Of a DNA stretch of 45,002 bases, positions 11,129-45,002 are shown piece after piece. Position numbers and translations under genes: made by a program. Below the pieces are notes generated by a model. That model was not told the origin of the DNA. It made no database searches and worked only from the letters and a program-made list of their open reading frames with translations. This DNA comes from a virus: IMG/VR virus record IMGVR_UViG_3300045988_174610, positions 1 through 45,002 of that record; one strand, 5' to 3'. Position 1 is the stretch's first letter. The number at the start of each line of letters is the position of its first letter.

Positions 11129-11139
11129 TGCTGTTCTCC

Positions 11140-11439
11140 TCACCAAGGGTGGCGGCGGACCGCCTCGCACTCTTCTTCATCGGTCAGCGCGTCCTGGTAG
11201 GCAACGCGCTCTTCTCTGCGAAGCGTGTCGGCGTCATCGGTGGCACCGAAGGCGTCTTCCAGGAAGTCCGCGAAGTAGTCGGCGAGGATGATCCGGGCGC
11301 GCCCCTTGGCACTTTCGAGGCTCTTGTAGATCAGCTCGTCGACGTCGTTGCGGAACTTGGCCTGGATCTCAGCAGCAGATCTCATGTCCCTGGCGGACTG
11401 TGCGAGGCCGAAGGTGTCGATGGTTGGAGTGCGAAGCAT
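11140..11439 (-). CDS. First gene of the early-left operon, hypothetical acidic protein (99 aa)
   Basis: Uninterrupted ORF directly downstream of the operator-rich region. Confidence 0.5.
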   Translation of the reverse strand: MLRTPTIDTFGLAQSARDMRSAAEIQAKFRNDVDELIYKSLESAKGRARIILADYFADFLEDAFGATDDADTLRREERVAYQDALTDEEECEAVRRHPW

Positions 11440-11622: not shown

Positions 11623-12372
11623 TTAGGCAATTAGATCTGACTGCATCGCGTTTTTCTCAAGGTTAGAGATCAAAATAATGTTGGCATGGCTTGTCAGAAT
11701 ATTTTTTTCTCTGTTTGCAGCCTCTTTTGATAGGCGGTCATCGATAACAGCGATGGTCTGTACAGAATTACGAATGTTCTCAGGAATGGCAAGAACTTTT
11801 CGCAAGAACCCTGCGCTAGCGTTAGCAGTAGGGGTAATCGCATCCACGTATTTGTCGTCGATCTTAAAGTCAAACTCAAGTTGCATCCCGGAGATGCCTG
11901 CAATTTTTGGTCTATCGACTAATTCTTTTGTTGGCCACCAGCGCTTGAACAGTTTTTTTGATTCTTCTACAAGGTTCTTTTTGGCTCTGGATTCAAATGC
12001 GTGCTCTGTCAGCCAGTCATCAATAGCAAACATCGTACGTAGATAATTTGCCACAGCCGTTTCTGCGTTCGTGAATGATGTGTAAACCTCAAAAACGCCA
12101 GACCGGCTTAGATTGACATTCCTCATGCTGGCAATCTTACGAAGCGCTGCCCATCTGTGATGGCTTGACATGTTGATGCCGCACGAAACAATCTCGTGCA
12201 TGGTGAGGCCATCATCAAAGATGTGGAACGATGTACCTACTTTTTCAACGAACACGTCGAACGGAGCTCCGTTCAACATTCTGAACGGAGAGCTCAGTGC
12301 AAAAAGTTCTGAATCATCCCGAGTTTCTTCGGGGTAGAGACCGAAACCTAGGTTTTCGATTGAAATGCTCAT
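11623..12372 (-). CDS. DUF1828/DUF1829-like two-domain protein, distal gene of the repressor operon
   Basis: 249-aa ORF in an AT-rich segment. The family assignment is from memory of the architecture only (N-terminal F.IFDDG.T..E.. region, C-terminal F.FDF.I.. region). ATGA coupling to the upstream gene. Confidence 0.5.
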   Translation of the reverse strand: MSISIENLGFGLYPEETRDDSELFALSSPFRMLNGAPFDVFVEKVGTSFHIFDDGLTMHEIVSCGINMSSHHRWAALRKIASMRNVNLSRSGVFEVYTSFTNAETAVANYLRTMFAIDDWLTEHAFESRAKKNLVEESKKLFKRWWPTKELVDRPKIAGISGMQLEFDFKIDDKYVDAITPTANASAGFLRKVLAIPENIRNSVQTIAVIDDRLSKEAANREKNILTSHANIILISNLEKNAMQSDLIA

Positions 12373-30437: not shown

Positions 30438-33400
30438 ATGAAAGAGAACCTGAACCCCGCCTTTGAGGCCATCGACGAACTCGCGGCAGAGCAGAAACAG
30501 CGCCAGGAGCAAACTGGCGCACAGATGCAGGCGTACACAAAGCAACTCGAATCAGTTCAGCAAGAGGCAGAAACCAACAGCAATCCTGCCTTTGCGGTGA
30601 TTGATGAAATGCAGGCCGAGCGGCGTCGCTCCGCGGGTGCGCTTGTTAGCGGTGATGCTATGAAGGCGGCCAAAGTGCGAGATCTTTCCGAACGCTACGG
30701 AACTACGCGCACGGCCGCAGAGATCAACTACGACACGCTCTTTGCCCAGGCAAACCGTGACGATGCGGACGAAGCTCTGACGCAGGCACCTTCACTGGCC
30801 AAATATTTCGCCGAAAACCAAAAAGATGCGCCGATCTTCAAGGATGATCTTGGGGTGCTTTCGCGCATTGAGGAAGGGTTCCGCAAGATCGGTTCTCGCT
30901 ACTCTTCAAATTCGAATGAACCTGTTGATGCCCAACCCAATGCGAAGTACTGGGACACGGAAGAAACTACGGGAGACGCTGCGCTTGACGAACGCATTCG
31001 CCCGATGGTGAATTCCTCGCAGATCGGGCGCGGCGCACAGGCAGGATGGCTCATCGGACAGCAAGGCTTGATGTGGGCTGAGGCCGGCAACAACAAGGCT
31101 CGGCTTAATGACGAATTCAAGAAGCGTGATAAAGAGATCGACAAGGATCTCGAACAGCTTGCGGGTGACGACTCGGATGCGGCTTTCTACAACGCCGCGC
31201 AGATTGTCGGCACGATGCTTTCGACTATGCTCGGCGGTTCAGAAGGTGCGGTTGCCGGCGGTGCATTGGCCACGGGTGCTATGGCTGTCGGTGCGGCTCC
31301 TGCCTCAGTGCCCATTCTTTTGGGCGGCATGGCGCTTGGCATGGGCACTGAAGGAACGCGAAAAGTCGAAGGCGGCCTTTCTTTGAAGACCCTCATTGAT
31401 CAAGGCGTGCCGTATGAAAAAGCCGTACAGATTGCAGGATCCGTGGGCGCAGTCAATGCCTTGATCGAAATGGGCGGCGTGAGTGTGCTCGGCAAGGCCT
31501 TCAGCCCAATTGCCAAATCATTGAATTCTCTTTTTACCAGCAAGTCCGTAAAAGCCCTTGAGAGTCCGACGTTGCGCGGTGCGTTCATGGACGTCGCCCG
31601 CTTGTACACAATGGGCGTCGGGCAGGAAGTCATCACCGAGGCCGCGCAGGAAGTGACCTCAATGGTAGGCGAAGAGGTCGGCCGCCTTTGGGGTGAAACG
31701 GGCGCCAAAGGCATTTCGATGGACGAGGCCATTGACCGCATTCTTGATGTCGGAGAGATGACACTGAAGGGCTCTGCCGTGCTTGGTGCGCTGAGTACGG
31801 GTCCGGTCATGGTCAACCATGCTGCCAAGATAAACCGCGCGAATCAGACGAAGGAATTTTTTGAAAACCTCACACAGGATGTGGCGCAGATGAAAGGTGC
31901 AAACCTTTCTCCGGGTGCCACCAAGGAAGTAATTGATGGCGTGGCACAGGATGCCGGCGCGGGAACGATTTATGTCGACGGTTATGCGTTCCGACAGGTA
32001 ATGGTTGAAGCCGGCGTACGGCCTGAAGATCTTGAGCAGGTGGTCCCCGGCTTGTCTCAGCAGGTGGATGCGGCAGCTGTAAACGGCACCGATGTGACGA
32101 TGAGCACAGGCGACTTTGCGGCACGTCTCGCGGCTTCTCCATTTGGGCAAAAGCTCGTGCCCCACATGCGCCTTAACGAAAACGACCTTTCTCAAGTTGA
32201 AGCTGATAACCTCGAAAAGTCCGTTAAGCAAATGCGCCGCGCAGCCGTTCGGTACGCGATCAACCCCGACGAGCAGATTGTTGATCCCGACGAGCTCAAA
32301 GTTGAAAACGATGCAACGCTCACACCCGAACAAAAGAAAGAGCAGCGAAAGGCCATACGTACCGGTCGCGAACAGAGACGCCAAGCGGACAAAGACGCAC
32401 GCGACGCGTACGTCACTGGTATTACAAACAGTCTGACGCAAGCCGGATTCTCGTCGCGAGAGGCTCGCACACAGGCTCGATTTGCCGGCGCTGTGATGAG
32501 CAACCTTGCCAAACGTCTGGAAATACCTGTGCAAGAAGCGGTCGATCGCTATGGGGTGAATGTTTCTGTGAGTGACGACAGTCCCTCGGGAAACAGATTC
32601 AACATGCCCATCACTCAGGGGATTGAGTGGCCTATGGGGCCGTCCAAGACAATCAAGCCTGATGACACTTTGACGGTTATTCGTGTCACAAATGCCCCTG
32701 TGAGTCGGAAAGAAGCTGTTGCGCAAGCCGCAGATGTTTTTAGCCGTGGTGTTACCAATAAGAGTACCGGATTTGTTTTGACTGCTTCTCGCAGTGACAT
32801 GAAAAAGGCCGCAGGTGGTATCGGCTCGTTAAAAGAACGGGTGTTCACAGCTGTGGCTATGGATATTGCCAGAATCGCAGAAGAATCGATTTTGGTTGAA
32901 AGCCACGTAGATGTACAGCACCGAAACCCCAAGGTTCAGGGTGTTCATCACTTCATTGCCCCTGTTGAATTTGGCGGCAAACTTTGGAGGGTGCAGCTCT
33001 TAGTGCGGGATATTGTCGAGCCGAAAAATGACCGAGCGATTGTTCACTCGGTTGATGGTATCGATATCCAGGAAATGGAAACCCCGCCCGGTGGTATTAG
33101 CCAATCGGAGAGCGGGGCTTCTTACGTCAATGGGGTCGCGGCCGCAGACAACCGACTAGTCCGCCTTGACACCGATAGTGGGCCCACTGACCGTACTCTT
33201 AGTTTAACAGACTTGATTGGAGGTCGCGTTCCTTACGAGCGCGCAGATGGTCGAGGTTTGTTTGATGCGGTAGAAGAATCTTCTTTCGCCGAAAACGGTG
33301 TCTATTACGAGGCTCCTGTATTCAATCAGACAGCTTGGCACGGGTCGCCGCATCAGTTCGATCGATTCTCAACCGAACACATCGGCTCTGGCGAAGGTGC

Positions 33401-36400
33401 TCAGATGCACGGCTGGGGGCTGTATTTTGCAGATGACCAGGCAGTTGCAGATCGGTATCGCGGGAGCCTTGTGATCGGACGAGGAGGAAACGAATACTCG
33501 ATTGCATACAAGGGGGCTCGACCGGAGGAACTTCCTCAATCTTTGCGCGTCGGGTTAGAAAGGCTGAAGGGCAATGTTCTGCACATCGATAGCGATATCC
33601 GGAGAGAGTATGAATCGCTTGTTTATTCGTTGAATGAACGATTCGAGGCTGCCGATCGGATTGCGAAAGTTTACGAAGGACTGATCGCTCAGATTGACGA
33701 AAATCCCAAACAGTCAATTTCGTCGTTTTTGGCACGCGTTCCGGAAGATGAAAAATACCGAGCCGATCTTGCGGTGAAAAGTGCCCGTGCTGCTGCTAAG
33801 AACGAAGGTAGAAGAGCTTCTGTCCATGATGTTCGTACACAGCTAAACGACTCGCTTGCAGCAGTAGATCAGCAAAGGCGTGAGAACAAAGAGCCACTGG
33901 ACGCTTTAAGACAAATTGATCCGGATGACTTGACGGTTGAATACGACTCCGGACGTGTTTTCAAAGTTGACATTCCTGACCCCGACAAAATGCTTGACGA
34001 ACAAAAGCTCTGGGGAGCCGGCAGCAATTTTGAGTTGAAGGCAAAAATTCGCGGGATGATTAGCGAATGGAATGGTGACCATTTGGACACGGAACAAATG
34101 ATCTATGTTCCAGATAGGCCGACAGGACGCGATGTTTATCAGGCTATCTCAAAAGCAATGGGCGGTCCTAAACAGGCGTCTTTGTGGCTGAAAGACCGAG
34201 GGATCGAGGGCATTACCTATGTGGGCGGAACTGACGGACGATGCTACGTTGTCTTTGACGACCAGGCTATTGAAGTCCTCGACTTCTATCAGCGTCAAGG
34301 CGGCGAATCTTTGGGATCCTACTCCCCGACCGAAAACCGCATCACGCTGACGCCGAATGCCGACCTTTCGACCTTCTCTCACGAGATGGGCCATTGGTAC
34401 CTGAACACGTTATTTGCCGTTGCTCGCGCCGGTGATGCCACACCTTCCATCCTTGAAGACGTCAACGCCGTCATGAAGGAGTTCGGCCTTTCGGGGATTG
34501 CCGAGTGGGATGCCTTGGGCTTTGAAGGCCAGCGCAAGTACCACGAGCGCTTTGCATCTTGGACGGAGCAGTATCTCGCCGAAGCCAAGGCTCCTGTCGG
34601 CTTAAAGAAGTTCTTCCGCACTCTGGGCAAGTTCATCCGCGACGCCTACCGCACTTTTATGGCCGGCGTTGTTGAAGGTACGCAGACTCGCTACCGTCAG
34701 GAAACAGGCGAAGAGCTCCCGATGTTCTCCGAAGAAGTCCGACGCGTGCTTGACCGCATGGTTGCGGGCGAAGCAGCCGTTGAGCAGAACGAACAGGCCC
34801 AGAGCCTGACGCCGCTTTTCGAAACAAAGCCTGATGGCATGAGCGACGAAGAATGGCGGGAATACGCAGCAGAGCACGACGATGCGGTTCAGTCCGGCGC
34901 AGAACTGCTTGCAAAAGCACAGGCAAAAGACGAGCGCTGGTACTCGAACGCACGAAGCAAGATCCTCAAGGAGATGCAGGCTCGTGCCGAAGAGATTCGC
35001 AAGAATACGCGCGAACGCGTGGAAGCCAGACTCATGAAAAGCCGCGAATTCACGGCTCTCAACATTCTGCAATCTTCAGATCGTCCTGGTATTGCGTTTG
35101 ATGCCCGCATCGATCCGAAATCGCTCGATGGCTTGCTTGAAGCCGGGCAGATCGAAATTCTACGAAAGGCAGGTATGCTCAAAGACGGCGGGGTTGATGT
35201 GAAGGTCTCCCGCGAACTGCTTCGTCCGTTTGCCAACTTCCGCTCCGATCGGACGTTCCTTAATGGCCTTCTGCGTGTTGCCGATAAGGAAAGAGTCATT
35301 GAAGAGCAGACAACGGCTGAATGTTTGAAGAAGTACGGCGAGCTCTTTGATCCCGTCAAGCGCGACAAGACCGTATCGAAGGCGCTTCACAACGAAGCCC
35401 GAGGCCGCATGGTTGCCACCGAGCTCAAGTACCTGATCAACGACAAGGAGGCGCGTTCGCGCGTTTACCTGGCCGCGGCACGGCAGGCGGCAATGGCTCT
35501 CGTGGACCGCACGAGAATCGGCAAAGCGAAGGTCGCGACTTTCCTTTCTGCGGAAGGGCGTGCTGCACGCCGTGCTCTGGAGGCGTTCCGCAAGGGAGAT
35601 CTTGAGGCCGCCGCCAACTTCAAGCGGCAGCAGATTGTTAACCATGAAGCCGCGCGCCTTGTGTCCGAGGCTGAAGATAAGCGCGAACGCCTCAAGGAGC
35701 TGCGCAACCTTGTATTCAAGTCCGACAAGAAGCTTGCCGCTAGATACGACACGAATATCATGGCCGTTGCTCGCGCGGTGCTCACGAATCGCAACATGGG
35801 CAAGGCGACAGAGAACGTAGACGATGCCGTCGAGGAAATCCTGAAGAAGGTCAAGCAGTACGATCCGGAAATCTTCGAGGGCCTGAAGTCGTTCATGGAT
35901 CGGCATCCTTACAGCCCTGGGCGCGATCCGTCGATGCTGACTGTCGCGGGATTCATCGGCGTGGTTGATGACGTACAGGCGCTTGTCAAACTGGCTCGAG
36001 ACGCGCGCCAAATCACTCTTGACGGAAAGAAGCAGGACCTCGACCAAGCTATCGAAGCACTCAAGAAAGCGATCTTGTCCGCGGACAACACTCGCTTTCG
36101 CCCCGGACAGGAACGTGCTTCCACCAAAAAGGAAGAGAACCGCAAGCTCTACTTTACGGCTCGGGCTTTTGTCATGCGCGTGGAAAACTGGTGCCGGGCC
36201 ATGGACAACGGGCAGGACTTGGGGCCGTTTACGCGCTACATATTCCGCCCCGTTGCCGACGCCGCAGCCAAATACCGCGTCAAGAACGCTGAAATCCAGG
36301 AACGATTTGCAGCTCTCATCAAGCCCATGGAAGAGAAATGGGAAGAGGTTGGAGAGATTGAGGCGCCGGAGCTTGGCTACACGTTCGAGCGCAAGTCCGA

Positions 36401-38261
36401 ACTCATCGGCGCATTGATGCACATCGGCAACGAGTCGAACAAGTCGAAGATGCTCATTGGTGGACGCGGTGAAGATGCTTCGTGGGCGGATCGTGTCGTA
36501 CTGGCAAACGGCGAAGTGATCTACTCCTATGCGCGTTGGGACCGCTTCTTTGCTCGGGCCATGCGCGAAGGCATCATCACAAAAGACGACATGGACTTTG
36601 TACAAGCCGTTTGGGATCTGCTCGAAGAAACCAAGGGCATGTCTCAGAAGGCTTTCAAGGAGTACTACGGCTTCTACTTCGACGAAGTGCAGGCTTCGCC
36701 CGTTGTAACTCCATGGGGCATCTACCGTGGCGGCTACGTTCCCGCAGCCACTGATCCGATGCTTGTAGCCGGGCGCGACAAGCAGATCGAACAGGATCTT
36801 TTTGAGTCGCAGAGCGAATACCAAGACATGATGCCTGTGACGCAGCCCGGTTGGTCGAAGGCACGTGAGAAGAAGTACTACAAGCCGTTAGTACTCAACG
36901 TCGGCATGCTTGGTGCACACATCCAGAGCGTCGTGAAGTTCGCGATGATGGCGCCGGCGGTGAAGAACGTACAGCGCATCGTCAAAGATCGCCGCTTTGC
37001 GGACCTGATGAACGACATCGATCCCAAGGTCATCAGTGACATGCTTACGCCTTGGCTGCGTCGCTCTGCCACGCAGACAATATCAACTCCCACGAATGCC
37101 TTCGGGCGAATTCTCAATCAGGTTCGCGGCCTTGCCGGCATGAGCCTGATGGCGGGCAACGTGGCAAACGTGCTGCAGCAGTACACAGGATTCAGCATCG
37201 CCATGTCGGAAGTAGGCGCCAGAAACACTGCTCAAGGCCTGAAGGAATACTTGCGCGATACGAAGTCTGCATATGCCCGAGTGACGGAAGCATCGACCTT
37301 CATGAAGGGCCGACTCGAAGACTTCTGTTTTGAGTACCAAAACGAAGTCAACCGAATTGCCTCCTCTCGCGCTCCGACAAAGGTTGAAGAAGTGCGCGAC
37401 TGGACGCAGCGGAAGGCTTACATTCTGCAGACTCTTGCGCAGCGGACCATCGACATCCCCGTGTGGCTTGCGGCCTACAACCAGGCAATTACGGAAAAAG
37501 GCATGGCTGACGCGGATGCGGTGTTCTACGCCGACAGCGTAGTGCGACGCACGCAGTCCTCTTTTGCCCCTGAGTCCGTGTCCAGGGTGGAAACAGGCGA
37601 CCCGCTTCAGCGCAGCATTCTTGTGTTCTACAACTACTTCAACATGCAGCTGAACCTGCTTCGCGAGAGTTACACGAGAGCTAAGACAACAGGGAAATAC
37701 GGTCGCTTTACTTTGGACTTCGCGATGATTGTGGCCATTCCCGCAATCCTTTCCGAAGTGATTGCACAGGCATTCAGCGGGTTTGATACGGGCGACGACG
37801 ATGATTGGGACGCAGTCGACGGGCTTCAGCTTGCGATCACATCGGTCAACAAAAACATGGTGGCCATGCTTCCGTTCTTTGGAAACGTCATCAATATGAC
37901 AGGCACGAAGATGTCTAGAGGCGACTATGGCGCCGTGAGCGACGTCTCAAAGATGCTCTTCGGCAACGATCCGTACAACGACAAACTTGTAAGTGTGCCG
38001 GTCATGTCGTTGTTCGAGAACTCAGCCGAGGGCGCTAAGAACCTACTTCTTCTGCTCTTTAGCGAAGAGTACGATCCGGATCCCCGACGCGCAGCACGCA
38101 ACACGCTTGACCTATTGACCTTGATGACAGGTATTCCGTTCAGCGGCGTAAAGAAGCCTGTTGGATATTTGGCCGGTGTTGCGGGTGACGAATACAGCGT
38201 TGACAACCCGGTTGATTTCACGCGCGGATTTATCAGCGGCAAAGATCCGAACGCTGAGTAG
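30438..38261 (+). CDS. Giant (2607 aa) internal virion / polyvalent ejection protein with HExxH metallopeptidase motif
   Basis: Single uninterrupted 7.8-kb ORF. Glycine-zipper hydrophobic segments near aa 250-330 and near the C-terminus. WHGSPHQFDRF..IGSGEGAQMHGWGLYFA motif at about nt 33336-33440. FSHEMGHWY (HEMGH at nt 34380-34394). Confidence 0.8.
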   Translation: MKENLNPAFEAIDELAAEQKQRQEQTGAQMQAYTKQLESVQQEAETNSNPAFAVIDEMQAERRRSAGALVSGDAMKAAKVRDLSERYGTTRTAAEINYDTLFAQANRDDADEALTQAPSLAKYFAENQKDAPIFKDDLGVLSRIEEGFRKIGSRYSSNSNEPVDAQPNAKYWDTEETTGDAALDERIRPMVNSSQIGRGAQAGWLIGQQGLMWAEAGNNKARLNDEFKKRDKEIDKDLEQLAGDDSDAAFYNAAQIVGTMLSTMLGGSEGAVAGGALATGAMAVGAAPASVPILLGGMALGMGTEGTRKVEGGLSLKTLIDQGVPYEKAVQIAGSVGAVNALIEMGGVSVLGKAFSPIAKSLNSLFTSKSVKALESPTLRGAFMDVARLYTMGVGQEVITEAAQEVTSMVGEEVGRLWGETGAKGISMDEAIDRILDVGEMTLKGSAVLGALSTGPVMVNHAAKINRANQTKEFFENLTQDVAQMKGANLSPGATKEVIDGVAQDAGAGTIYVDGYAFRQVMVEAGVRPEDLEQVVPGLSQQVDAAAVNGTDVTMSTGDFAARLAASPFGQKLVPHMRLNENDLSQVEADNLEKSVKQMRRAAVRYAINPDEQIVDPDELKVENDATLTPEQKKEQRKAIRTGREQRRQADKDARDAYVTGITNSLTQAGFSSREARTQARFAGAVMSNLAKRLEIPVQEAVDRYGVNVSVSDDSPSGNRFNMPITQGIEWPMGPSKTIKPDDTLTVIRVTNAPVSRKEAVAQAADVFSRGVTNKSTGFVLTASRSDMKKAAGGIGSLKERVFTAVAMDIARIAEESILVESHVDVQHRNPKVQGVHHFIAPVEFGGKLWRVQLLVRDIVEPKNDRAIVHSVDGIDIQEMETPPGGISQSESGASYVNGVAAADNRLVRLDTDSGPTDRTLSLTDLIGGRVPYERADGRGLFDAVEESSFAENGVYYEAPVFNQTAWHGSPHQFDRFSTEHIGSGEGAQMHGWGLYFADDQAVADRYRGSLVIGRGGNEYSIAYKGARPEELPQSLRVGLERLKGNVLHIDSDIRREYESLVYSLNERFEAADRIAKVYEGLIAQIDENPKQSISSFLARVPEDEKYRADLAVKSARAAAKNEGRRASVHDVRTQLNDSLAAVDQQRRENKEPLDALRQIDPDDLTVEYDSGRVFKVDIPDPDKMLDEQKLWGAGSNFELKAKIRGMISEWNGDHLDTEQMIYVPDRPTGRDVYQAISKAMGGPKQASLWLKDRGIEGITYVGGTDGRCYVVFDDQAIEVLDFYQRQGGESLGSYSPTENRITLTPNADLSTFSHEMGHWYLNTLFAVARAGDATPSILEDVNAVMKEFGLSGIAEWDALGFEGQRKYHERFASWTEQYLAEAKAPVGLKKFFRTLGKFIRDAYRTFMAGVVEGTQTRYRQETGEELPMFSEEVRRVLDRMVAGEAAVEQNEQAQSLTPLFETKPDGMSDEEWREYAAEHDDAVQSGAELLAKAQAKDERWYSNARSKILKEMQARAEEIRKNTRERVEARLMKSREFTALNILQSSDRPGIAFDARIDPKSLDGLLEAGQIEILRKAGMLKDGGVDVKVSRELLRPFANFRSDRTFLNGLLRVADKERVIEEQTTAECLKKYGELFDPVKRDKTVSKALHNEARGRMVATELKYLINDKEARSRVYLAAARQAAMALVDRTRIGKAKVATFLSAEGRAARRALEAFRKGDLEAAANFKRQQIVNHEAARLVSEAEDKRERLKELRNLVFKSDKKLAARYDTNIMAVARAVLTNRNMGKATENVDDAVEEILKKVKQYDPEIFEGLKSFMDRHPYSPGRDPSMLTVAGFIGVVDDVQALVKLARDARQITLDGKKQDLDQAIEALKKAILSADNTRFRPGQERASTKKEENRKLYFTARAFVMRVENWCRAMDNGQDLGPFTRYIFRPVADAAAKYRVKNAEIQERFAALIKPMEEKWEEVGEIEAPELGYTFERKSELIGALMHIGNESNKSKMLIGGRGEDASWADRVVLANGEVIYSYARWDRFFARAMREGIITKDDMDFVQAVWDLLEETKGMSQKAFKEYYGFYFDEVQASPVVTPWGIYRGGYVPAATDPMLVAGRDKQIEQDLFESQSEYQDMMPVTQPGWSKAREKKYYKPLVLNVGMLGAHIQSVVKFAMMAPAVKNVQRIVKDRRFADLMNDIDPKVISDMLTPWLRRSATQTISTPTNAFGRILNQVRGLAGMSLMAGNVANVLQQYTGFSIAMSEVGARNTAQGLKEYLRDTKSAYARVTEASTFMKGRLEDFCFEYQNEVNRIASSRAPTKVEEVRDWTQRKAYILQTLAQRTIDIPVWLAAYNQAITEKGMADADAVFYADSVVRRTQSSFAPESVSRVETGDPLQRSILVFYNYFNMQLNLLRESYTRAKTTGKYGRFTLDFAMIVAIPAILSEVIAQAFSGFDTGDDDDWDAVDGLQLAITSVNKNMVAMLPFFGNVINMTGTKMSRGDYGAVSDVSKMLFGNDPYNDKLVSVPVMSLFENSAEGAKNLLLLLFSEEYDPDPRRAARNTLDLLTLMTGIPFSGVKKPVGYLAGVAGDEYSVDNPVDFTRGFISGKDPNAE

Positions 38262-38318
38262 CGTCCATAAACTCTTGAGTGCCGATGCGAGACTTCCAAC
38301 AAATGATTGGGGTCTCGC

Positions 38319-40634
38319 ATGGCACTTGCTTCTGAAACCAGACGGTCTCCTCGATACGTTGGAACCGGCACCGAAAAAACTTTCACGTTCGCCTTCAAGC
38401 TTCTCAAGCCTGAAGACGTTGACGTGCGCGTAGCTTTGAGCGGAGAGGATGAGGCGTCGCTTGCGACAAGCGAATACTCCGTCACGCTCAACGCAAACCA
38501 GGACAACAATCCGGGCGGCACGGTAACCCTTGTCTCTCCTCTGGCGCAGGGCGCGGTGCTGGTCATCGTGTCCGCGACGCCTTACTTGCAACCGTCCGTT
38601 TACACAAACCGCGGTGGCTTCTATCCGGAGCAGCTCAACACAAACTTGGATCGCCTCACGATCCTCACGCAACAGCTCAAGGAACAATCCGAACGCGCTC
38701 TGATCGTTCCGGTTACGTCCGAAAAGACGCCGGAAGAGACGATGACGGAAATTCTGGACGTGGCAGACAAGGCCAACGAGTACGCCCAGAAAGCCGAAGA
38801 GACTTATCAGGAAGTGCTCGAGACGCAAGAAGAAATTCTCGAGACTCAAAATCAAGTCGATGCAGCTCTGGCGGAAGTTGAGTCGGATCGTCAAGAAGTC
38901 GCGGAGAACACGCAAAGCGTTTCCGAGATGCTCCAGCGAGCAGAAGAAATCGATGCGGGCGTTCAGGAAGTTCTCCCGGTTGTCGATGATATTGCTTCCA
39001 TTGGCGATCACATGGAGAGCGTCATCACTGTTGCTGATGATCTCCAGGGGTATCCGATTGCCTCCATGGACTTCGGCTCCATTACTGATCCGTCTGAACC
39101 TACTACGGTTGTTGACGGAGGCAATATCAAGGCTGTTGCTGACAACATTGCGGACGTTTCGAACGTTGCCGAAAACGTCGATGATGTTGTCCAGGCGGTG
39201 GGGAAAGCTGAGGAGGCCATTGCTTCTGCAAGTGCAGCTGCTGCGTCAGCTTCTGCTGCGGATGCTTCAGCGAAGGCAGCCGCCGCGTCCGCAGCTACAG
39301 CGCAAGCCGGAAGCGAAGCTGTCGAAGAGGGGTTGCAGGATGCACTGACGGCGATCGATACCGCGGCGCAATCGCAGGTGTCGAACCTTCAGTCTAAGGG
39401 GGCTGAACAGATTTCGGCGATCGGGAACGCTGGGGCGACACAGGTAGCAGCAATTGAGTCCGCGGGTCAGACTTACGCCGACCTTGCTGAGGCCTGGGCT
39501 CAGAAGATGGATGGTAAGGTCGAGGAGGATGCGTCAGACGCAGATGCTGGGTACTCGTCACGGTACTACGCAGGCCTTGCGCAAGACGCTGCAGATAGCG
39601 CCGCCTCGAATGCGACGCTCGTCTCTCAGAGCGTATCTACCGCCGTAACCAAAGCACAAGAGGCAGAAGCCTCGGCAACCTCAGCAGCAGGAAGCGCGGG
39701 GCAGGCGGCCTCGTCGGCGAGCGATGCCGATGCTTCGGCACAGACGGCCACTACGAAGGCGAGCGAAGCCTCCGCATCCGCAACCGCCGCAAAGGGTTCA
39801 GAAACTGCGGCTGCAGGTAGTGCCACGTCGGCGTCGAATTCGGCCGGTGCCGCGGCAACGTCGGAAACCAACGCGAAGGCGTCGGAGGCTGCGGCAGCAC
39901 AGAGTGCCTCTGCAGCATCCACTTCAGAGACCAATGCGAGAACTTCGGAAACGAACTCAAAAGCTTCCGAAACGAATGCCAAAGGCTCGGAAACCGCTGC
40001 GGCTAGTAGTGCTTCGTCTGCTGGAAGTTCTGCAACAGCAGCTCAACGTGCTCAGACAGCGTCGGAAACAGCGAAAGGCCAGGCAGAAACTGCCCGTGAT
40101 GCGGCGATTGCCGCACAAACTGCGGCTGAAAATGCGAAGGCGGCGGCTGAAGCGGCACGCGACGAGGCACAAGAAATTTCCGGCTCCATCGGCGATCCTC
40201 TAGGAAAGGCAGAGGCGGAGACGCTTTACGCGAAGATTGCTCACGTACATGCGTTAAGCGTTGGCGGAGATGCAACAGGTTCTGCTTCCCTTGGCAAAGA
40301 GACCGCAACAATGACGTTGACCCTAACGAATAGCGGCGCGACGGCAGGGGCGTACGGACCAGAGGCTGACAGTCCTATTGCTTTCGGAGGAACGATCCTT
40401 GTCCCTAGCGTAACGGTCGATGCGAAAGGTCGCGTCACGTCGATTGTTTCTCGGACGCTCACGATGCCAGCGGAGATCACTTGGGCAATCATCCAGGGGA
40501 AACCGTCGGCGTTCACTCCAGCAGAGCACTCGCACACAATGGATCAAGTCACGGGCTTGGGGACACTTGCCTCAAAGAATGCTGTCGGAGCGGCGGACCT
40601 GGCTGACACACTGGATTTTGGAGGATTGGCGTAA
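38319..40634 (+). CDS. Tail fibre (long Ala/Ser/Thr/Glu-rich shaft, HxH-containing C-terminal repeats)
   Basis: N-terminal beta domain, coiled shaft with SETN(A/S)K heptad-like repeats, and C-terminal AHVH / PAEHSHTMDQVTGL fibre-repeat motifs. Confidence 0.75.
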   Translation: MALASETRRSPRYVGTGTEKTFTFAFKLLKPEDVDVRVALSGEDEASLATSEYSVTLNANQDNNPGGTVTLVSPLAQGAVLVIVSATPYLQPSVYTNRGGFYPEQLNTNLDRLTILTQQLKEQSERALIVPVTSEKTPEETMTEILDVADKANEYAQKAEETYQEVLETQEEILETQNQVDAALAEVESDRQEVAENTQSVSEMLQRAEEIDAGVQEVLPVVDDIASIGDHMESVITVADDLQGYPIASMDFGSITDPSEPTTVVDGGNIKAVADNIADVSNVAENVDDVVQAVGKAEEAIASASAAAASASAADASAKAAAASAATAQAGSEAVEEGLQDALTAIDTAAQSQVSNLQSKGAEQISAIGNAGATQVAAIESAGQTYADLAEAWAQKMDGKVEEDASDADAGYSSRYYAGLAQDAADSAASNATLVSQSVSTAVTKAQEAEASATSAAGSAGQAASSASDADASAQTATTKASEASASATAAKGSETAAAGSATSASNSAGAAATSETNAKASEAAAAQSASAASTSETNARTSETNSKASETNAKGSETAAASSASSAGSSATAAQRAQTASETAKGQAETARDAAIAAQTAAENAKAAAEAARDEAQEISGSIGDPLGKAEAETLYAKIAHVHALSVGGDATGSASLGKETATMTLTLTNSGATAGAYGPEADSPIAFGGTILVPSVTVDAKGRVTSIVSRTLTMPAEITWAIIQGKPSAFTPAEHSHTMDQVTGLGTLASKNAVGAADLADTLDFGGLA

Positions 40635-41044
40635 TGGCGAAAACAGTGCAGTGGCGAGGAGGAACCGCCGCAGAGCACGGAAATTTCACGGGTGCAGCTC
40701 GTGAGGTGACGGTGGAGACCGATACCGGAGCTCTGCGCGTACATGACGGTTCGACAGTCGGAGGGACTCGTATCGCAACCGAGGCAGAGCTTAAGCAGTG
40801 GGTCACGAGACAGCTTGATATCCAGACTCACGAGATAGCAGATATCACCGGATTGCAGGCGGCGCTCGACGCCACTGTGAAGACGACGGGCGACCAAACG
40901 ATCGAAGGCACCAAAACCTTCTCGGCCAAGATCGTGGCTTCTGCCGGCGTTCAAGGGAAAGCCGATTCGGCAGCTACCTCCGACGACGCTCAGTCCATGC
41001 TGGCCGCATTCCAAGAATTCGCACAGGAGAACGGAATTGTCTGA
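40634..41044 (+). CDS. Short tail-fibre stem with Mtd-like N-terminal domain; no receptor-binding domain
   Basis: MAKTVQWRGGTAAEHGNFTGAAREVTVETDTGALRVHDGSTVGG closely resembles my recollection of the Bordetella phage BPP-1 Mtd N-terminus (MSTAVQFRGGTTAQHATFTGAAREITVDTD...VHDGATAGG). It is followed by HEIADITGLQAALD...GDQTIEGTKTF fibre repeats and then stops at 136 aa. Confidence 0.7.
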   Translation: MAKTVQWRGGTAAEHGNFTGAAREVTVETDTGALRVHDGSTVGGTRIATEAELKQWVTRQLDIQTHEIADITGLQAALDATVKTTGDQTIEGTKTFSAKIVASAGVQGKADSAATSDDAQSMLAAFQEFAQENGIV

Positions 41045-41426
41045 CGATCTGAAAACTCTAGTCGCCCAGGAAGTCGCCAAACAGCTGGCGGCCATCGCGG
41101 CCGACCAAACAACGAAGAAGGTTCTCGAGTTTTTGAAGAACCGGAACTCGGCGCTTGCATACGTTGTCGATAAAGGCGAGTCCGGAGGAATCAGTTGGCG
41201 AATTTGGAGTGATGGATTGATCGAACAGTGGATGTCAGATCATTCCAAAAACAAAGCTTATACATTTCCAAAGCCATTCTCGTCAGATAGTTATTGTGTG
41301 ATAGGGATTGGTTTTCTGGTAGATGAAGTTGCGCAACAGTTTATCTATAAGAGCGCTACGGGATTCCAAACTGATTCCGCCGGGCATGCAACAGCAACAG
41401 ATTCGTGGTACGCAATCGGATATTGA
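41037..41426 (+). CDS. Tip cassette C1 (gp53-like C-terminal tail-fibre tip fold), no homopolymer (locked ON)
   Basis: TTG start 7 nt after AGGAGA, overlapping the stem-gene stop. Contains KKVLEFLKN helix, GESGG (GGA GGA at 41184-41189), ISWRIWSDGLIEQW core, and ends SWYAIGY. Confidence 0.65.
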   Translation: MSDDLKTLVAQEVAKQLAAIAADQTTKKVLEFLKNRNSALAYVVDKGESGGISWRIWSDGLIEQWMSDHSKNKAYTFPKPFSSDSYCVIGIGFLVDEVAQQFIYKSATGFQTDSAGHATATDSWYAIGY

Positions 41427-41435
41427 GGATTAGGT

Positions 41436-41796
41436 ATGGCAACAGCAGATCAAATCGTGAAGAAAGTCCTCACAGAGTTAAACAAAAAGATTGATTCAGT
41501 GGGGGGGGGTAGTCGATAGTTGGACGGACGGTCAAGGTAACTTTTGGCGGAAGTATTCTGACGGTTTCATTGTGCAAGGCGGAACAGAACCCTATACAGC
41601 GAAGTCAGGAGTCGTGACGTTTCACATTCCGTTTTCAACTGCTAATTGCGTAGTTGTAGCGCCGACAGCCGAAGTCACTTCAACTGATAGTGATGGTGTT
41701 GATATGGCAACTATGGTTTCTGACTTTACAGCTAGCTCTTTTAGATACTCCCGCAGTAGTGGAAGAACAGTCCCTTGGGTGGCGTATGGATACTAG
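41436..41796 (+). CDS. Tip cassette C2, phase-OFF in this assembly (G9; G8 gives a 119-aa protein)
   Basis: ATG at 41436 after GAGGA. MATADQIVKKVLTELNKKIDSVGG, then the G tract, then in the -1-shifted frame VVDSWTDGQGNFWRKYSDGFIVQGG...VPWVAYGY. The current frame stops at TAG 41517-41519. Confidence 0.7.
41501..41509 (+). repeat. G9 homopolymer in C2
   Basis: Counted directly: cagt GGGGGGGGG tagtcgatag. Confidence 0.95.
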
Positions 41797-41809
41797 AAAG
41801 GAAATCGAA

Positions 41810-42192
41810 ATGACAGAAGTAATTCCCCAGGTGGGGGGGTATCTGAAAACCCCACGACTAAAGCGGTTTTGTCTTGGTTCAAGACACAAATCGGAAAAGC
41901 CGACCAGGTTGTCGAGGAGTGGCACGAGGGTTCGGAATGGTACATAAAGCACTCGAATGGATTCATCGAACAGGGTGGGATTTATTCAACCTCAGATTCA
42001 GGCATAACAACAATATCTTTTATCGCCCCATTTTCAGAGGTTGAGACCGTGAGAGTGTTCGCCCACAGCGATAAGGCGCGTGATTCTGGGGATGAGTGGC
42101 ACAGCCACTTCCTACCGTACAACATTACTACAAATACTTTCACTCTTAGATCGGCAAATCCAGAACGGCGATGGTATGCCTGCGGCTATTAA
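41810..42192 (+). CDS. Tip cassette C3, phase-OFF in this assembly (G7; G8 gives a 127-aa protein)
   Basis: ATG at 41810 after AAGGA. MTEVIPQVGG, tract, then VSENPTTKAVLSWFKTQIGKADQVVEEWHEGSEWYIKHSNGFIEQGG...RRWYACGY in the other frame. The current frame runs to a stop at 41947. Confidence 0.7.
41833..41839 (+). repeat. G7 homopolymer in C3
   Basis: Counted directly: cag gt GGGGGGG tatctg. Confidence 0.95.
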
Positions 42193-42204
42193 ATGAGGTT
42201 AAAA

Positions 42205-42579
42205 ATGGCAGAAACAGACTTTTATATCGGACAAATCTTTGAGGAAACCTATCCTCCCGAGGCTGCGGTGTGGTGCAACAGCCACGGCGACCGCTACATC
42301 ACAGAGCTTGAAAAGGAAGGAGCCAAGCGCCGCTTCCAGATCGTGGCGGTGCCGGAGCCGACAACCGAGGAGATCGCCGCACAGGTGCGAGCAAAGCGCG
42401 ATGCCTTGCTGGCGGAGACGGACTTCCTGATGATGCCGGACTACCCGCTCGGCGAAGAAGACGCGACCGCCTTGAAGACCTATCGCCAGGGGCTGCGCGA
42501 CGTACCGACCCAGGAGGGCTTCCCGACCGAAATCACGTGGCCTGATTTTCCCGCAACGCTTTCCAAGAAGGTGGCTTAA
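42205..42579 (+). CDS. Tail-fibre assembly chaperone (Tfa-like)
   Basis: C-terminal pattern RAKRDALLAETDFLMMPDYPL......LKTYRQGLRDVPTQEGFPTEITWPDFP is the classic tail-fibre-assembly/DUF4376-type motif. Same TGAGGTTAAAAATGGCAGAA start context as C5. Confidence 0.7.
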   Translation: MAETDFYIGQIFEETYPPEAAVWCNSHGDRYITELEKEGAKRRFQIVAVPEPTTEEIAAQVRAKRDALLAETDFLMMPDYPLGEEDATALKTYRQGLRDVPTQEGFPTEITWPDFPATLSKKVA

Positions 42580-42948
42580 ATGGCAACAGCTGATTCGACC
42601 ATAAAAGCGGTCTTAAACCACCTCCTTCAGAATGGGGGGGGTAATCATAAAGTTATTGAAGAATGGCACAGTGAATCAGGAGGCCAGTGGTGGAGGAAGT
42701 GGTCTGATGGATATTTAGAGCAAGGCGGATTGTGGAATGAAGCTGGCCCTGCTGAAGGATATACAAACAGGACTATCACTCTTCCAGTCAGTTTTGGAAC
42801 AGTGAATTATGTCGTGGTTGTTCAGTCAGGTTTTCGAGAAAACTCTGGATTGGGAACTTACGTCTCGGAAAAAGATACTTCTTTTTTTAAAGCAAAAAGT
42901 GCATCTAATCCACCGAATGCTGCTACATGGTACGCTTGCGGATATTGA
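42580..42948 (+). CDS. Tip cassette C4, phase-ON (G8)
   Basis: MATADSTIKAVLNHLLQNGGGNHKVIEEWHSESGGQWWRKWSDGYLEQGG...ATWYACGY. Intact 122-aa ORF through the tract. Confidence 0.75.
   Translation: MATADSTIKAVLNHLLQNGGGNHKVIEEWHSESGGQWWRKWSDGYLEQGGLWNEAGPAEGYTNRTITLPVSFGTVNYVVVVQSGFRENSGLGTYVSEKDTSFFKAKSASNPPNAATWYACGY
42634..42641 (+). repeat. G8 homopolymer in C4
   Basis: Counted directly: cagaat GGGGGGGG taatcat. Confidence 0.95.
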
Positions 42949-42957
42949 GGTTTAAAA

Positions 42958-43325
42958 ATGGCAGAAGCGAATCAAACGATTAAGAAAGTTTTGAACCACC
43001 TGAATTCCAAGATCGGAACGGGGGGGTAGTCGATAGTTGGAGCGATGGGCAGGGGAACTTTTGGCGGAAGTACGCCGATGGGTGGATTGAACAGGGTGGC
43101 ATTATTGTGGATCAAAGCGAATCGAAAATCGAAACATTAACTTTCCACACCAGTTTTTCAAACACGAGCTATTCTCTTTTCCTAAGCAAACAAATTTCGT
43201 CGACTGACACATCGTTTTCTGCTAGGGCAATTGGTGATATGTATTCCGATAAGCAGGTGTCCAGTGTAAAGATTTTTCATTGGGGCTTGGCAACTAATTT
43301 GACTTGGTTTGCCTGCGGATATTAA
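42958..43325 (+). CDS. Tip cassette C5, phase-OFF in this assembly (G7; G8 gives a 122-aa protein)
   Basis: ATG at 42958 after GAGG. MAEANQTIKKVLNHLNSKIGTGG then an immediate TAG. The other frame continues VVDSWSDGQGNFWRKYADGWIEQGG...TWFACGY. Confidence 0.7.
43020..43026 (+). repeat. G7 homopolymer in C5
   Basis: Counted directly: ggaac GGGGGGG tagtcgatag. Confidence 0.95.
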
Positions 43326-43336
43326 AGGAAATAGAC

Positions 43337-43720
43337 ATGGATAAAGTTTCACGAGTGGGGGGGGTAGCCTCTCCTGATGTTTTGAAGGTTTTGGAGTGGT
43401 TCAAAAATCAGATCAAATCCAACAAAGGAATTGTCGAAGAGTATCACGACGATTTAGGTTTTTACGTTAAATTCGCAGGCGGCCTGATTGTGCAAGGCGG
43501 AGCGCTTACAGTGGTATCTACCCAGACCATCACTTTTCGCACTCCTTTTTCGGGTATCGCATACTCGTTAGCCTTACTTCCAATCCTTATTAAAACTGGT
43601 GAGTCTTGGGGAGAAGCACCGCGAGAAATGAGTGGAACAAGAACTACCTCAAGCGTCAGCATCTGGATGAACGGCACTGCACAAGATCGAACAGGTTCTT
43701 GGATTGCCATCGGCTACTGA
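43337..43720 (+). CDS. Tip cassette C6, phase-ON (G8)
   Basis: ATG at 43337 after AAGGA. MDKVSRVGGVASPDVLKVLEWFKNQIKSNKGIVEEYHDDLGFYVKFAGGLIVQGG...GSWIAIGY, intact through the tract. Confidence 0.75.
   Translation: MDKVSRVGGVASPDVLKVLEWFKNQIKSNKGIVEEYHDDLGFYVKFAGGLIVQGGALTVVSTQTITFRTPFSGIAYSLALLPILIKTGESWGEAPREMSGTRTTSSVSIWMNGTAQDRTGSWIAIGY
43357..43364 (+). repeat. G8 homopolymer in C6
   Basis: Counted directly: cgagt GGGGGGGG tagcc. Confidence 0.95.
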
Positions 43721-43726
43721 CTCTTC

Positions 43727-43746
43727 GCCCTCTTCGGAGGGCTTTT
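43727..43746 (+). terminator. Rho-independent terminator of the late/tail-fibre operon
   Basis: GCCCTC-TTCG-GAGGGC followed by TTTT, 7 nt after the C6 stop. Confidence 0.75.
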
Positions 43747-43756
43747 CAGAAAAGTA

Positions 43757-43788
43757 AAACCCGCCTCAGTCAAAACCGAAGCGGGTTT
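43757..43788 (-). terminator. Hairpin downstream of the porin gene (probable terminator)
   Basis: AAACCCGC-(16 nt)-GCGGGTTT; on the reverse strand it is followed by TACTTTTC. Confidence 0.45.
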
Positions 43789-43821
43789 AAGTCTTAATCA
43801 GAATCTCAAGAAAAGATCAGA

Positions 43822-45002
43822 TTAGAACTTGTGACGGATACCGATCATAGCACCGAAGACGGTGGGGTCTTCGTCTTCTACACCAGAGGTGTTGTGGTCA
43901 AAGCTATCCTGGTTATACGTAACAACACCATAGATGTTGGTGCGCTTGGAGAGCGGATAATCGTAACCGGCAGACACGATCCAACGGTTCAAATCGACAC
44001 CCCCGAGCCAACCACCCATGCGGTCATCCATGCTGTCGGCGGATTCGGCGTCCATGTAAGAAGCGCCGAGCAGAACGTTACCACCTGCCGCGGGAATGGC
44101 AGCGGAAATGCCAAGGCTCCAGCCTTTCACATAAACGTACTTAGAGCCGTCCTCGACGTTCAACATGTTTTCGGCAGCCAGATCAACCAGATCCGTTGCT
44201 GCGCCAGAGAAGCTAGACAGGCGAACTTCGTCAAAATAGGCGGCGCCAGCAAAGAGCTTCACGACCTCAAAGTCGTAGTTACCGCCGAAACGAACTGTCA
44301 GGCTGTCGTCGATGTCGTCGGCGGCACCCTCAGCAGCCGTAAGGCCGGCAGTCTTATAGTTGATTGAGTCGACGGCGAAGTAGAGGTTAAGAGGACCATT
44401 AGCGTAGGTTGCGCCGATGGCGTAGTAACGATCGCTGCCAGATTCGTTTTCATAGTCGTTGGAACCCATGCCGTACTGGGCGAACACTGTGAAGCCGGCG
44501 AAGTTCGGGGTTTCGTAGGCAATCATGTTGTCCCATTTGCCGGAACCACCAAAGACCGTATCGGCTTGAGCAGCGTAGCCACCCCAAGACGTACCAAAGG
44601 CGGACATCATACCCTGCTTACCCCAGGAAGACACGCCACCATTAATGGAACCGATGCGGCCCATGGCCAACTTACCAAAACCGCCCTGGATAAAGAGGCT
44701 CGATTCACGATCAAACATCTGGTCTTTTTCAGCGCCAGTGTCAGAGGCAAAGCCGTCTTCAAGGATGAAGCCCACCGTCAAACCGTTGCCGAGGTCTTCA
44801 GTACCCTTCAAGCCCCAACGAGAGCCGGACTGCATGCCGGATTCCATAGAGAAGGTGTCTGTCGCGTCATAGCCGTTCGGGGCTTCTGCGCTGGTTGCAT
44901 CCAAATCGCTGTGTAGATAACGGAGGCCCGTATCAACGATACCGTACAGCTGAACGTCAGCAGCCAGAGCGGAACCGGCGAAAGCGCCGAGAACTGCAAC
45001 TG
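43822..45002 (-). CDS. Phage-borne general porin (Gram-negative trimeric porin; OmpC/PorB-like), body of the gene; 5' end at nt 56-74 across the junction
   Basis: Mature N-terminus ADVQLYGIVDTGLRY, alternating beta-strand pattern, GSRWGLKG, and C-terminal ...GAMIGIRHKF with terminal Phe. The frame is open from 44904 to the window end and joins the signal peptide at nt 1-74. Confidence 0.85.
   Translation of the reverse strand, partial: VAVLGAFAGSALAADVQLYGIVDTGLRYLHSDLDATSAEAPNGYDATDTFSMESGMQSGSRWGLKGTEDLGNGLTVGFILEDGFASDTGAEKDQMFDRESSLFIQGGFGKLAMGRIGSINGGVSSWGKQGMMSAFGTSWGGYAAQADTVFGGSGKWDNMIAYETPNFAGFTVFAQYGMGSNDYENESGSDRYYAIGATYANGPLNLYFAVDSINYKTAGLTAAEGAADDIDDSLTVRFGGNYDFEVVKLFAGAAYFDEVRLSSFSGAATDLVDLAAENMLNVEDGSKYVYVKGWSLGISAAIPAAGGNVLLGASYMDAESADSMDDRMGGWLGGVDLNRWIVSAGYDYPLSKRTNIYGVVTYNQDSFDHNTSGVEDEDPTVFGAMIGIRHKF
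44948..45002. repeat. Terminal overlap copy 2 (identical to 1..55)
   Basis: Same 55-nt string as nt 1-55. It ends exactly at the window edge. Confidence 0.95.

Follow-up and report, generated by a model that had tools for sequence, protein, structure and literature searches.

The 136-aa protein encoded at 40634..41044 (+ strand) in the IMG/VR virus record IMGVR_UViG_3300045988_174610 is probably a two-ended adaptor in a three-part tail fibre, in which five of six tips would be switched by poly-G tracts. The record was analysed over its whole length of 45,002 nucleotides (the window). The gene of the adaptor, called here the stem gene, runs from an ATG at 40634 to a TGA at 41042-41044. Immediately upstream of it is a tail-fibre gene, within a structural module like that of BPP-1, and six tip genes, named C1 and T2-T6, together with one chaperone gene fill the positions 41037..43720 behind it. 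At the N-terminal end the protein carries the Mtd_N domain of the major tropism determinant (Mtd) of phage BPP-1, and at the C-terminal end a short peptide which we propose as the dock of the tips. The comparisons presented below, in which contigs and loci of relatives are designated L001-L094 (L009 is BPP-1), show directly which domains are present, the shared gene order with BPP-1, the lack of a DGR (diversity-generating retroelement), the state of each tract, its variation among relatives, and the inheritance of the C-terminal peptide together with tip arrays; the joints at both ends, the trimeric state and the switching are what we infer from them.

An Mtd_N protein in the position of mtd

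The Mtd_N domain (PF18454) occupies stem residues 5-41 (40646..40756, + strand), with 57.9 bits against a cut-off of 26.3 (E = 9.5e-16) and all model positions, 1-37 of 37, covered. A PDB search aligned residues 1-50 with the known structures of Mtd (1yu0-1yu4 and 2iou; E = 1.3e-11), and in BLASTP residues 1-54 proved 54% identical to those of BPP-1 Mtd (E = 6e-16). Past residue 54 the stem remains unmatched in this comparison, the remaining segments having E > 5, and the intermediate beta-sandwich domain of Mtd is absent, as the alignment is confined to residues 1-54. The following segment, aa 63-97 (40820..40924, + strand), was assigned by Pfam and PDB searches and consists of the fibre repeat HEIADITGLQAALDATV and the BppL_N-like motif TGDQTIEGTKTFSAKIV. 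In the latter, GDQTIEGTKTF matches BppL_N (PF18338) at residues 81-97 with 27.4 bits against 25.8 (E = 2.3e-6). The sequence HEIADITGL is a single weak unit of the phage tail repeat (PTR) type (E = 0.093), and in the fibre of a relative the same motif belongs to a strong PTR array (E = 6e-20). The whole segment weakly matches the Tuc2009 baseplate protein 5e7f, and in L025 it runs continuous with the fibre shaft. Pfam thresholds are passed by Mtd_N and BppL_N alone, and no lectin or other C-terminal domain was detected in the stem.

These results bear on an earlier note on the same DNA, made from its letters. The note had described a similarity of the N-terminus to Mtd, had quoted the two fibre repeats and had pointed out that the product stops without a C-type-lectin variable domain. 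All three observations hold: the similarity is significant in the Pfam, PDB and BLASTP searches, a negative outcome of which the note itself had named as fatal to its reading; the repeats are present, one above the Pfam cut-off and the other weak; and the protein ends at residue 136 with no Pfam domain there. The description of the gene as a truncated mtd has to be abandoned, because Mtd_N is, judging by its distribution, a general and widespread attachment domain in phages without a diversity-generating retroelement (DGR), and beyond this domain the stem shows no relation to Mtd.

The same data make it scarcely credible that the 136-aa open reading frame (ORF) is a dead remnant of an Mtd-like gene whose variable domain was lost together with the DGR. 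Such an origin would agree with the restriction of the Mtd-like part to the first ~54 residues and with the position of the gene, which is that of mtd. Against it, a length of 135-138 aa and the sequence are kept in six clusters, down to 46% identity, and one cluster has 60 member sequences. The gene is also translationally coupled on both sides, with its ATG overlapping the TAA stop of the fibre gene (TAATG) and with an 8-nt overlap downstream (8 nt or 4 nt in relatives). Finally, its C-terminal half is a module found on other fibres, and Mtd_N is common in phages that have no DGR.

Homology and gene order place the stem gene where BPP-1 diversifies its receptor-binding domain, as the earlier note had maintained. 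Homology between a 2607-aa protein and BPP-1 bbp10 extends over about 1250 residues, and a 775-aa fibre shares 32% identity with bbp9 over about 295 N-terminal residues, so that the succession of giant protein, tail fibre and Mtd_N gene equals that of bbp10, bbp9 and mtd in BPP-1 (E = 3e-93, 2e-25 and 6e-16, respectively). The two phages part after this point: mtd is followed by avd, the template repeat (TR) and brt, whereas the stem gene is followed by the six tip genes and the tail-fibre chaperone.

The first 55 bases of the window (1-55) recur as its last (44948-45002). The contig is therefore closed to a circle of 44,947 bp (either the complete genome of the phage or an overlap of the assembly), and the absence of a DGR applies to the entire phage genome. 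No ORF of at least 250 aa in the closed genome matches a reverse transcriptase. Strings resembling YxDD are confined to the integrase, the 2607-aa protein, a 134-aa ORF and an antisense ORF, and none of them has a reverse-transcriptase-like context. Direct repeats of at least 40 nt in the fibre region represent tip paralogues only, their mismatches are not adenine-specific, and no pair of template and variable repeats (TR/VR) was found among them. The earlier claim that reverse transcriptase and TR/VR pair are lacking is thus supported by ORF, YxDD and repeat scans, and the DGR cassette elsewhere in the same genome that would have spoken against it was not found in the complete circle. A DGR-targeted variable protein of the Mtd type was rejected on all these counts (no beta-sandwich, no lectin domain, no reverse transcriptase, no TR/VR).

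An invertible-segment switch, as in the Mu G segment, the P1 C segment or shufflons, was also considered and rejected. All tip cassettes lie on the + strand, and the sole recombinase found is the integrase (3063-4142). There is no inverted-repeat arm inside the tip array: one inverted-repeat pair, I1, lies inside the fibre gene, and the two arms of the second, I2 (18 nt), are split between the fibre gene and the stem gene.

A portable peptide at the stem C-terminus

The most conserved part of the stem is not Mtd_N but the last ~30 residues, which follow the pattern ..SDDAQSxLAAFQEFxxxNxI-stop. The C-terminal peptide KADSAATSDDAQSMLAAFQEFAQENGIV, proposed as the tip dock, comprises aa 109-136 (40958..41041, + strand), and residues D117, D118, A119, S121, L123, A125, F126, Q127, F129, N133 and I135 are invariant down to 46% overall identity. 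The last ~30 residues are predicted to form an amphipathic helix (..SDDAQSMLAAFQEFAQENGIV). The AlphaFold2 monomer model of the stem, based on a 7-sequence alignment, is poor (predicted local distance difference test, pLDDT, 39.7) and was used only as a hint of this helix.

The peptide is not restricted to stems. It ends at least five other scaffolds, each time at the extreme C-terminus. As an example, a 721-aa T7-type fibre without Mtd_N in L025 ends in the peptide and is 89% identical to stem residues 64-136, and an unrelated 403-aa fibre in L087 and L088 ends in the same way. Further proteins with this ending are a 225-aa collagen-like protein, one of 125 aa with a different N-terminus, and one of 66 aa. 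In every context inspected the peptide is followed by an overlapping C1-like gene, then by more tips of the Gp53-like_C family and a chaperone. The C1-like gene overlaps the stop codon and begins with the C1 helix LSDDLKTLVAQEV...KKVL. Poly-G tracts were present in all peptide loci scanned except L006 and L008. The block that blastn reveals as common to otherwise different phages is composed of the stem C-terminus and the first ~33 codons of C1.

A search for natural fusions of stem and tip, using a chimeric stem-plus-C1 query, disclosed none among 75 homologues, indicating that the split is a maintained feature. A continuous stem-tip polypeptide, or its formation by programmed frameshifting, was rejected on the same grounds; inspection by eye of the stem/C1 junction revealed no slippery site conserved between the window and L003.

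Conservation of the peptide, its portability, its co-occurrence with tips, the shared DNA block, the lack of fusions and a helix motif common to the tips (see below) lead us to suggest that the stem C-terminal peptide and the N-terminal helices of the tips would form a joint. The modular design of a stem with exchangeable tips, put forward in the earlier note, thus gains strong comparative support from a portable peptide that precedes tip arrays in every context inspected, and the docking itself keeps the status of a proposal.

Free-standing tips and their chaperone

The tip array starts with C1 (129 aa, 41037..41426), which has a TTG start and is without a poly-G tract. It continues with T2 (41436..41796) and T3 (41810..42192), and after the chaperone gene with T4 (42580..42948), T5 (42958..43325) and T6 (43337..43720), all on the + strand. 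The tail-fibre assembly chaperone (124 aa, 42205..42579, + strand) starts with the ATG at 42205 in an ORF open from 42193, and was recognized by Phage_tail_APC (E = 7.7e-24) and phrog_4912 (E = 2.5e-27). All six tips match Gp53-like_C (PF21882, cut-off 24.9 bits); C1, T2 and T6 are above the cut-off (30.5, 36.6 and 31.8 bits), and T3 and T4 just below it (24.2 and 24.4 bits). A profile of the six tips matches the R2 pyocin fibre and AP22 gp53 in the PDB. NCBIfam gave no match for the stem, C1, the chaperone or the fibre.

The AlphaFold2 model of C1, based on 79 homologues (pLDDT 86), has an N-terminal helix at residues 2-36 and a beta domain at 42-127. Foldseek relates this model to the C-termini of the R2 and R1 pyocin fibres (6ct8, 6cl6 and 6cxb; probability 1.0), and the alignment of the helix-plus-foot unit spans the whole of 6cxb, an N-truncated R1 pyocin fibre. 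The best 120 of 171 tip homologues are all 103-147 aa long. In a pattern scan for tips C1 alone served as the query, as the alignment of all six was too divergent. On the basis of the family and profile matches, the C1 model and the short homologues, the tips are assigned as the receptor-binding end of the fibre, made as free-standing proteins of ~120 aa. They have in common the helix motif (T/A)xxx(V/I)KKVLxxL, replaced by DVLKAL in the L002 lineage.

In accord with the overlap reported in the earlier note, C1 begins with a TTG at 41037 inside the stem gene and shares its last 8 nt, stop codon included; AGGAGA is positioned 6 nt upstream. The 8-nt overlap is kept in relatives, and by this arrangement C1 is judged to be translationally coupled to the stem.

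A different arrangement, in which the tips attach elsewhere on the virion, to the fibre shaft or to the tail, and the stem C-terminus binds the chaperone, caps the fibre or is merely constrained by the ribosome-binding site and start of C1, is unlikely, yet of the alternatives considered it deserves the most attention. Docking on the stem is something we infer, and part of the conservation of ..ENGI(V/E)-stop falls on the Shine-Dalgarno sequence (GGAGA) of C1 and on the overlap at its ATTG start. Moreover, because the helix-plus-foot unit aligns to the whole of 6cxb, the helix may be a neck only. The nucleotide constraint, however, covers only the last ~6 codons and not the invariant DDAxSxLAAFQxF. 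The peptide is found on six scaffolds always at the extreme C-terminus, with the tip array directly next in every context inspected, and profile searches recognized no other attachment domain in a tip of ~120 aa.

Poly-G tracts in the tip genes

Six G runs of at least seven nucleotides, and no C run of this length, are present in the window; overlapping GGGGGGG matches number 13, compared to 2.8 ± 2.0 in shuffled sequences. All of these runs are in tips, except one located upstream of a porin gene. The separately encoded, poly-G-gated tips which the earlier note had placed behind the stem are therefore there: five tracts of G7-G9 lie within codons 7-24 of T2-T6, and each cassette has its own Shine-Dalgarno sequence and ATG. 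At G8 all five cassettes form intact ORFs of 119-127 aa with no internal stop. In the window T4 (G8 at 42634-42641, 122 aa) and T6 (G8 at 43357-43364, 127 aa) are ON. The OFF state is seen in T2 (G9 at 41501-41509, 27-aa product; 119 aa at G8), T3 (G7 at 41833-41839; 127 aa at G8) and T5 (G7 at 43020-43026, 23-aa product; 122 aa at G8). The OFF-state peptides of T2 (41436-41519) and T5 (42958-43029), 27 and 23 aa long, still contain the ..KKVLxxL.. helix motif and, if made, might compete for the proposed docking site.

Nearly all tracts in relatives likewise restore an intact ORF at G8. Tract lengths vary between near-identical contigs from different samples: one tract is G9, G8 and G8 in L003, L004 and L005, a second is G9 in L003-L005 and G8 in L007, and a further one is G8 in L093 and G7 in L094. 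Altogether, 50 tracts at 15 loci were recorded, 29 of them G9, 11 G8, nine G7 and one G10. As sequence features, the tracts carry the signature of contingency loci, with which switching of the tips would be consistent. A recoded form of the tip G tracts, GGAGGTGG, would lock a tip ON or OFF.

We have also considered that the tracts only tune expression, with RNA polymerase slippage or ribosomal frameshifting providing a low level of every tip, and length differences being neutral or assembly noise. Long homopolymers are known sites of transcriptional slippage, and with most tracts out of frame (39 of 50) an absolute OFF state would be wasteful. The ±1 differences between near-identical contigs of different samples and the same in-frame length, G8, in nearly all cassettes make this explanation improbable as a replacement for switching. 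The experimental precedent of poly-G phase variation of receptor-binding proteins in Campylobacter phages (Sorensen 2021, as cited in PMC10579305) points in the same direction, although the two mechanisms are not mutually exclusive.

Even less probable is that only the stem and C1 are functional, T2-T6 being decaying paralogues whose tract differences reflect errors of sequencing or assembly. In favour of decay, three of the five tips are out of frame in the window, all five tracts in L024 are G9, and short-read platforms miscall G homopolymers. It is difficult to reconcile with decay that a correction of a single nucleotide yields an intact ORF of 119-127 aa without internal stops in every cassette, and that each one keeps its Shine-Dalgarno sequence and ATG. 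Tracts are also placed at equivalent positions in phages with a 46-67% identical adaptor and on unrelated scaffolds, and no other gene in the 45 kb contains such a tract. Contingency switching of functional tips is the preferred interpretation.

In addition, G tracts coincide with recombination breakpoints (41501-41511 and 41819-41839 in the window). The window and L001 are homologous up to the point where the T2 tract ends, and again in T3 from ~14 nt upstream of the T3 tract. The corresponding L001 tip (10803-11230) is a hybrid of a T2 head and a T3 body with two helix motifs in tandem, and a tip in L087 (7289-7735) is a hybrid of a T5 head and a T6 body. The GC content, 0.54-0.60 around the fibre and stem genes, drops to 0.46-0.50 over the tip array (41001-44000), consistent with horizontal exchange of cassettes among phages.

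The proximal fibre and its C-terminal end

The proximal tail fibre (775 aa, 38307..40634, + strand; phrog_1640, E = 1.3e-17) is homologous at its N-terminus to bbp9 and to T7-type fibre N-termini, and its shaft is rich in Ala and Ser. The domain Phage_T7_tail was found in the fibre of relatives. The Mtd protein of BPP-1 is located at the fibre ends, with Mtd_N at the apex of its trimer, as established by the structure of Mtd and by cryo-EM of BPP-1. The extreme C-terminal peptide of the 775-aa fibre, TLDFGGLA-stop (40608..40631, + strand), is a candidate partner of Mtd_N.

A fibre gene stands directly 5' of an Mtd_N gene in eight lineages, namely this phage, the gut contigs L002 and L003, BPP-1, and phages AH02 of Pseudomonas, S-TIP37 of Synechococcus, K437b of Vibrio and CRP-3 of Roseobacter. 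Judged by eye and without a control set, the C-termini of seven of these eight fibres, from otherwise very different phages, follow the pattern [D/N]-hydrophobic-G-x-hydrophobic(-A)-stop or come close to it: DFGGLA in this phage, DLGGIA in BPP-1, NLGGLA in AH02, DFGTL in S-TIP37, DFGSI in CRP-3, DLGELA in L002 and DYGRVGT in L003. The end of the Vibrio K437b fibre (..TATGLA) fits only loosely. A conserved joint between fibre tail and Mtd_N may exist on this evidence, and possibly it is general.

Genome, host and neighbouring features

The window encodes an integrase, RecT/YqaJ, an S24 repressor, a DnaB-like helicase and a terminase, as well as a T7-type portal, a GP7-type capsid protein and the 2607-aa polyvalent protein. 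By this gene content (integrase, repressor, terminase, T7-type portal and capsid) the phage is classified as a temperate podophage. A scan of GTDB genomes with the stem alignment returned only the generic GDQTIxGxKTF motif and no full-length relative, and the host was therefore deduced from a phage-borne porin. This Porin_4-type protein (399 aa, - strand) is encoded from 43822 to 45002 and continues across the contig junction to about 56-75. Porins from metagenome-assembled genomes of Sutterella and Duodenibacillus resemble it at 64-90% identity, and the host is therefore probably a gut member of the Sutterellaceae (Burkholderiales); one weaker match (44%) comes from a bin labelled Oscillospiraceae. 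In the GenBank phage collection no DNA-level relative of the module was found, and protein searches gave two weak matches for one tip.

The G run outside the tips is a G10 tract at 232-241, located ~160 nt upstream of the porin in a divergent intergenic region. In L003, L004 and L005, which are near-identical relatives, the tract is G9, G8 and G10, and it possibly belongs to a phase-variable promoter of a phage-borne outer-membrane moron. A promoter scan detected no sigma-70 consensus near this tract or in the tip array, and no promoter-like site in 38000..45002. The same scan revealed a stem-loop with a 14-pair stem at 43757..43788, scored on the - strand, in the gap that separates the tip array from the convergent porin gene; it is likely the terminator that closes the late operon.

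Two further genes were noted. The 2607-aa polyvalent virion protein (30438-38261) contains LPD3 and LPD22 domains and has a sub-threshold match to ART-PolyVal (ADP-ribosyltransferase). A gene for a DUF1828/DUF1829 protein (11623-12372, - strand) adjoins the S24 repressor region and may be an accessory prophage gene, either a moron or a defence gene.

Proposed mechanism

In the proposed assembly, the 775-aa fibre of T7/BPP-1 type would be anchored to the tail and ends in the short ..DFGGLA tail, to which the adaptor would be joined by its Mtd_N domain. The last ~30 residues of the adaptor would hold one of the six separately encoded tips, each consisting of an N-terminal helix and a foot domain, similar to that of R-pyocin fibres, which would bind the receptor. 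Folding of the tips is probably aided by the tail-fibre chaperone, as in pyocins and in fibres of the Mu and P2 types. C1 would always be made, being available through its translational coupling to the adaptor. Slipped-strand mispairing in replication would alter the T2-T6 tracts by ±1 G and, as only G8 reads through, each genome would express its own subset of tips (T4 and T6 in the window). Progeny would then differ heritably and reversibly in the tips they can mount, with up to 32 (2^5) combinations per population, and virions from one cell may be mosaics. The flexibility of tropism would resemble that achieved in BPP-1 by DGR mutagenesis of Mtd, while being drawn from a fixed library of tips.

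Several points weigh against this scheme. Both joints are deduced from comparative patterns, the monomer model of the stem is poor, and the motif at the fibre end was recognized by eye on eight pairs with no control set. Only 11 of the 50 tracts are G8, compared to 29 at G9, and short-read assemblies can misjudge the length of a homopolymer. Instead of a docking element, the helix that the tips share could be a trimerisation neck like the one in R1 and R2 pyocin fibres. In addition, C1-type tips have a 22-residue N-terminal extension that is absent in T2-T6, so the two classes of tips might attach differently.

In a broader form, to which we give somewhat less than an even chance, BPP-1-like and other phages of gut Sutterellaceae would use a plug-and-socket code. 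One part of it would be the joint between fibre tail and Mtd_N, common to BPP-1 and to marine and Pseudomonas podophages, and the other a 30-residue peptide able to take any tip of the library. Five contingency tips would provide up to 32 heritable repertoires and mosaic virions, and the G tracts would also act as recombination joints that shuffle heads and bodies of cassettes. Such a code would operate independently of DGRs, in the exact slot of the BPP-1 DGR.

Comparison with known systems

With the Mtd/DGR system of BPP-1 (Liu 2002; structures 1yu0-1yu4) the phage shares Mtd_N, the slot after the fibre gene, a temperate lifestyle in Burkholderiales, and the problem of receptor switching at the fibre tip. 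Unlike Mtd, the stem has no beta-sandwich or lectin domain, and the phage has no avd, TR/VR or reverse transcriptase. BPP-1 mutates one domain, whereas here the choice would be among pre-made tips, and the receptor-binding part is a separate polypeptide.

The G segment of Mu (Gin) and the C segment of P1 (Cin) combine a constant proximal fibre with alternative distal parts and chaperones, and in this way switch host range (for the principle, see PMC10579305). In these phages the alternatives are joined covalently by DNA inversion and two states exist, whereas a protein-protein junction is proposed here and up to 32 states are possible.

R-type pyocin fibres (PA0620 with the chaperone PA0621; 6ct8, 6cl6 and 6cxb) and AP22 gp53 (4mtm) have the same tip fold and a cognate chaperone nearby. 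Their foot is the C-terminal end of one long fibre, while in the window it is a free-standing protein of ~120 aa. Trimeric pieces set non-covalently end to end with a short adaptor, as proposed here, are found in T4 gp34-gp37, in gp38 on gp37 of S16 and T2, and in BppU-BppL of TP901-1 and Tuc2009; the stem itself has a BppL_N-like motif. Each of those joints accepts one fixed partner, in contrast to a single joint apparently offered six, five of which are contingency-gated.

Fletchervirus phages of Campylobacter are lytic myophages of an epsilonproteobacterium, unlike the temperate podophage of a probable Sutterellaceae host described here, in which the tip array is located behind an adaptor with a portable C-terminal peptide. 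Hypermutable G tracts in their receptor-binding protein (RBP) genes act as ON/OFF switches and lead to mixed phage populations (Sorensen et al. 2021, Cell Rep 35:109214, as cited in PMC10579305 and PMC10877375), and up to four such RBPs occur in one phage according to PMC10877375. In these citing papers, no description of an array of small tips with a common N-terminal helix was found for Fletchervirus. The common trait is the presence of several G-tract-gated receptor-binding genes in one phage.

To our knowledge, the poly-G route has been shown experimentally only in Campylobacter phages. Poly-G phase variation, DGRs and invertible segments are given as routes of rapid RBP variation in PMC10579305, and contingency loci were recently claimed for T2 and T4 (bioRxiv 10.1101/2025.10.21.683753). 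Within the searchable literature there was no description of such a system in Sutterella phages, or of an architecture that combines a two-ended adaptor with an array of individually switchable tips. If the joints are real, the short, portable docking peptide together with the tip helix would offer a natural means of exchanging receptor-binding domains in engineered phages. The system would then account for the ability of uncultured gut phages to keep up with phase-variable host surfaces, and the widespread Mtd_N would gain a concrete role in attachment to fibre ends. Three features look new in comparison with the known systems: an adaptor whose terminal peptide is portable, tips that stand free in an array, and the location in the BPP-1 DGR slot, by which the poly-G route is found in a relative of the model phage for DGRs, at the same genomic position.

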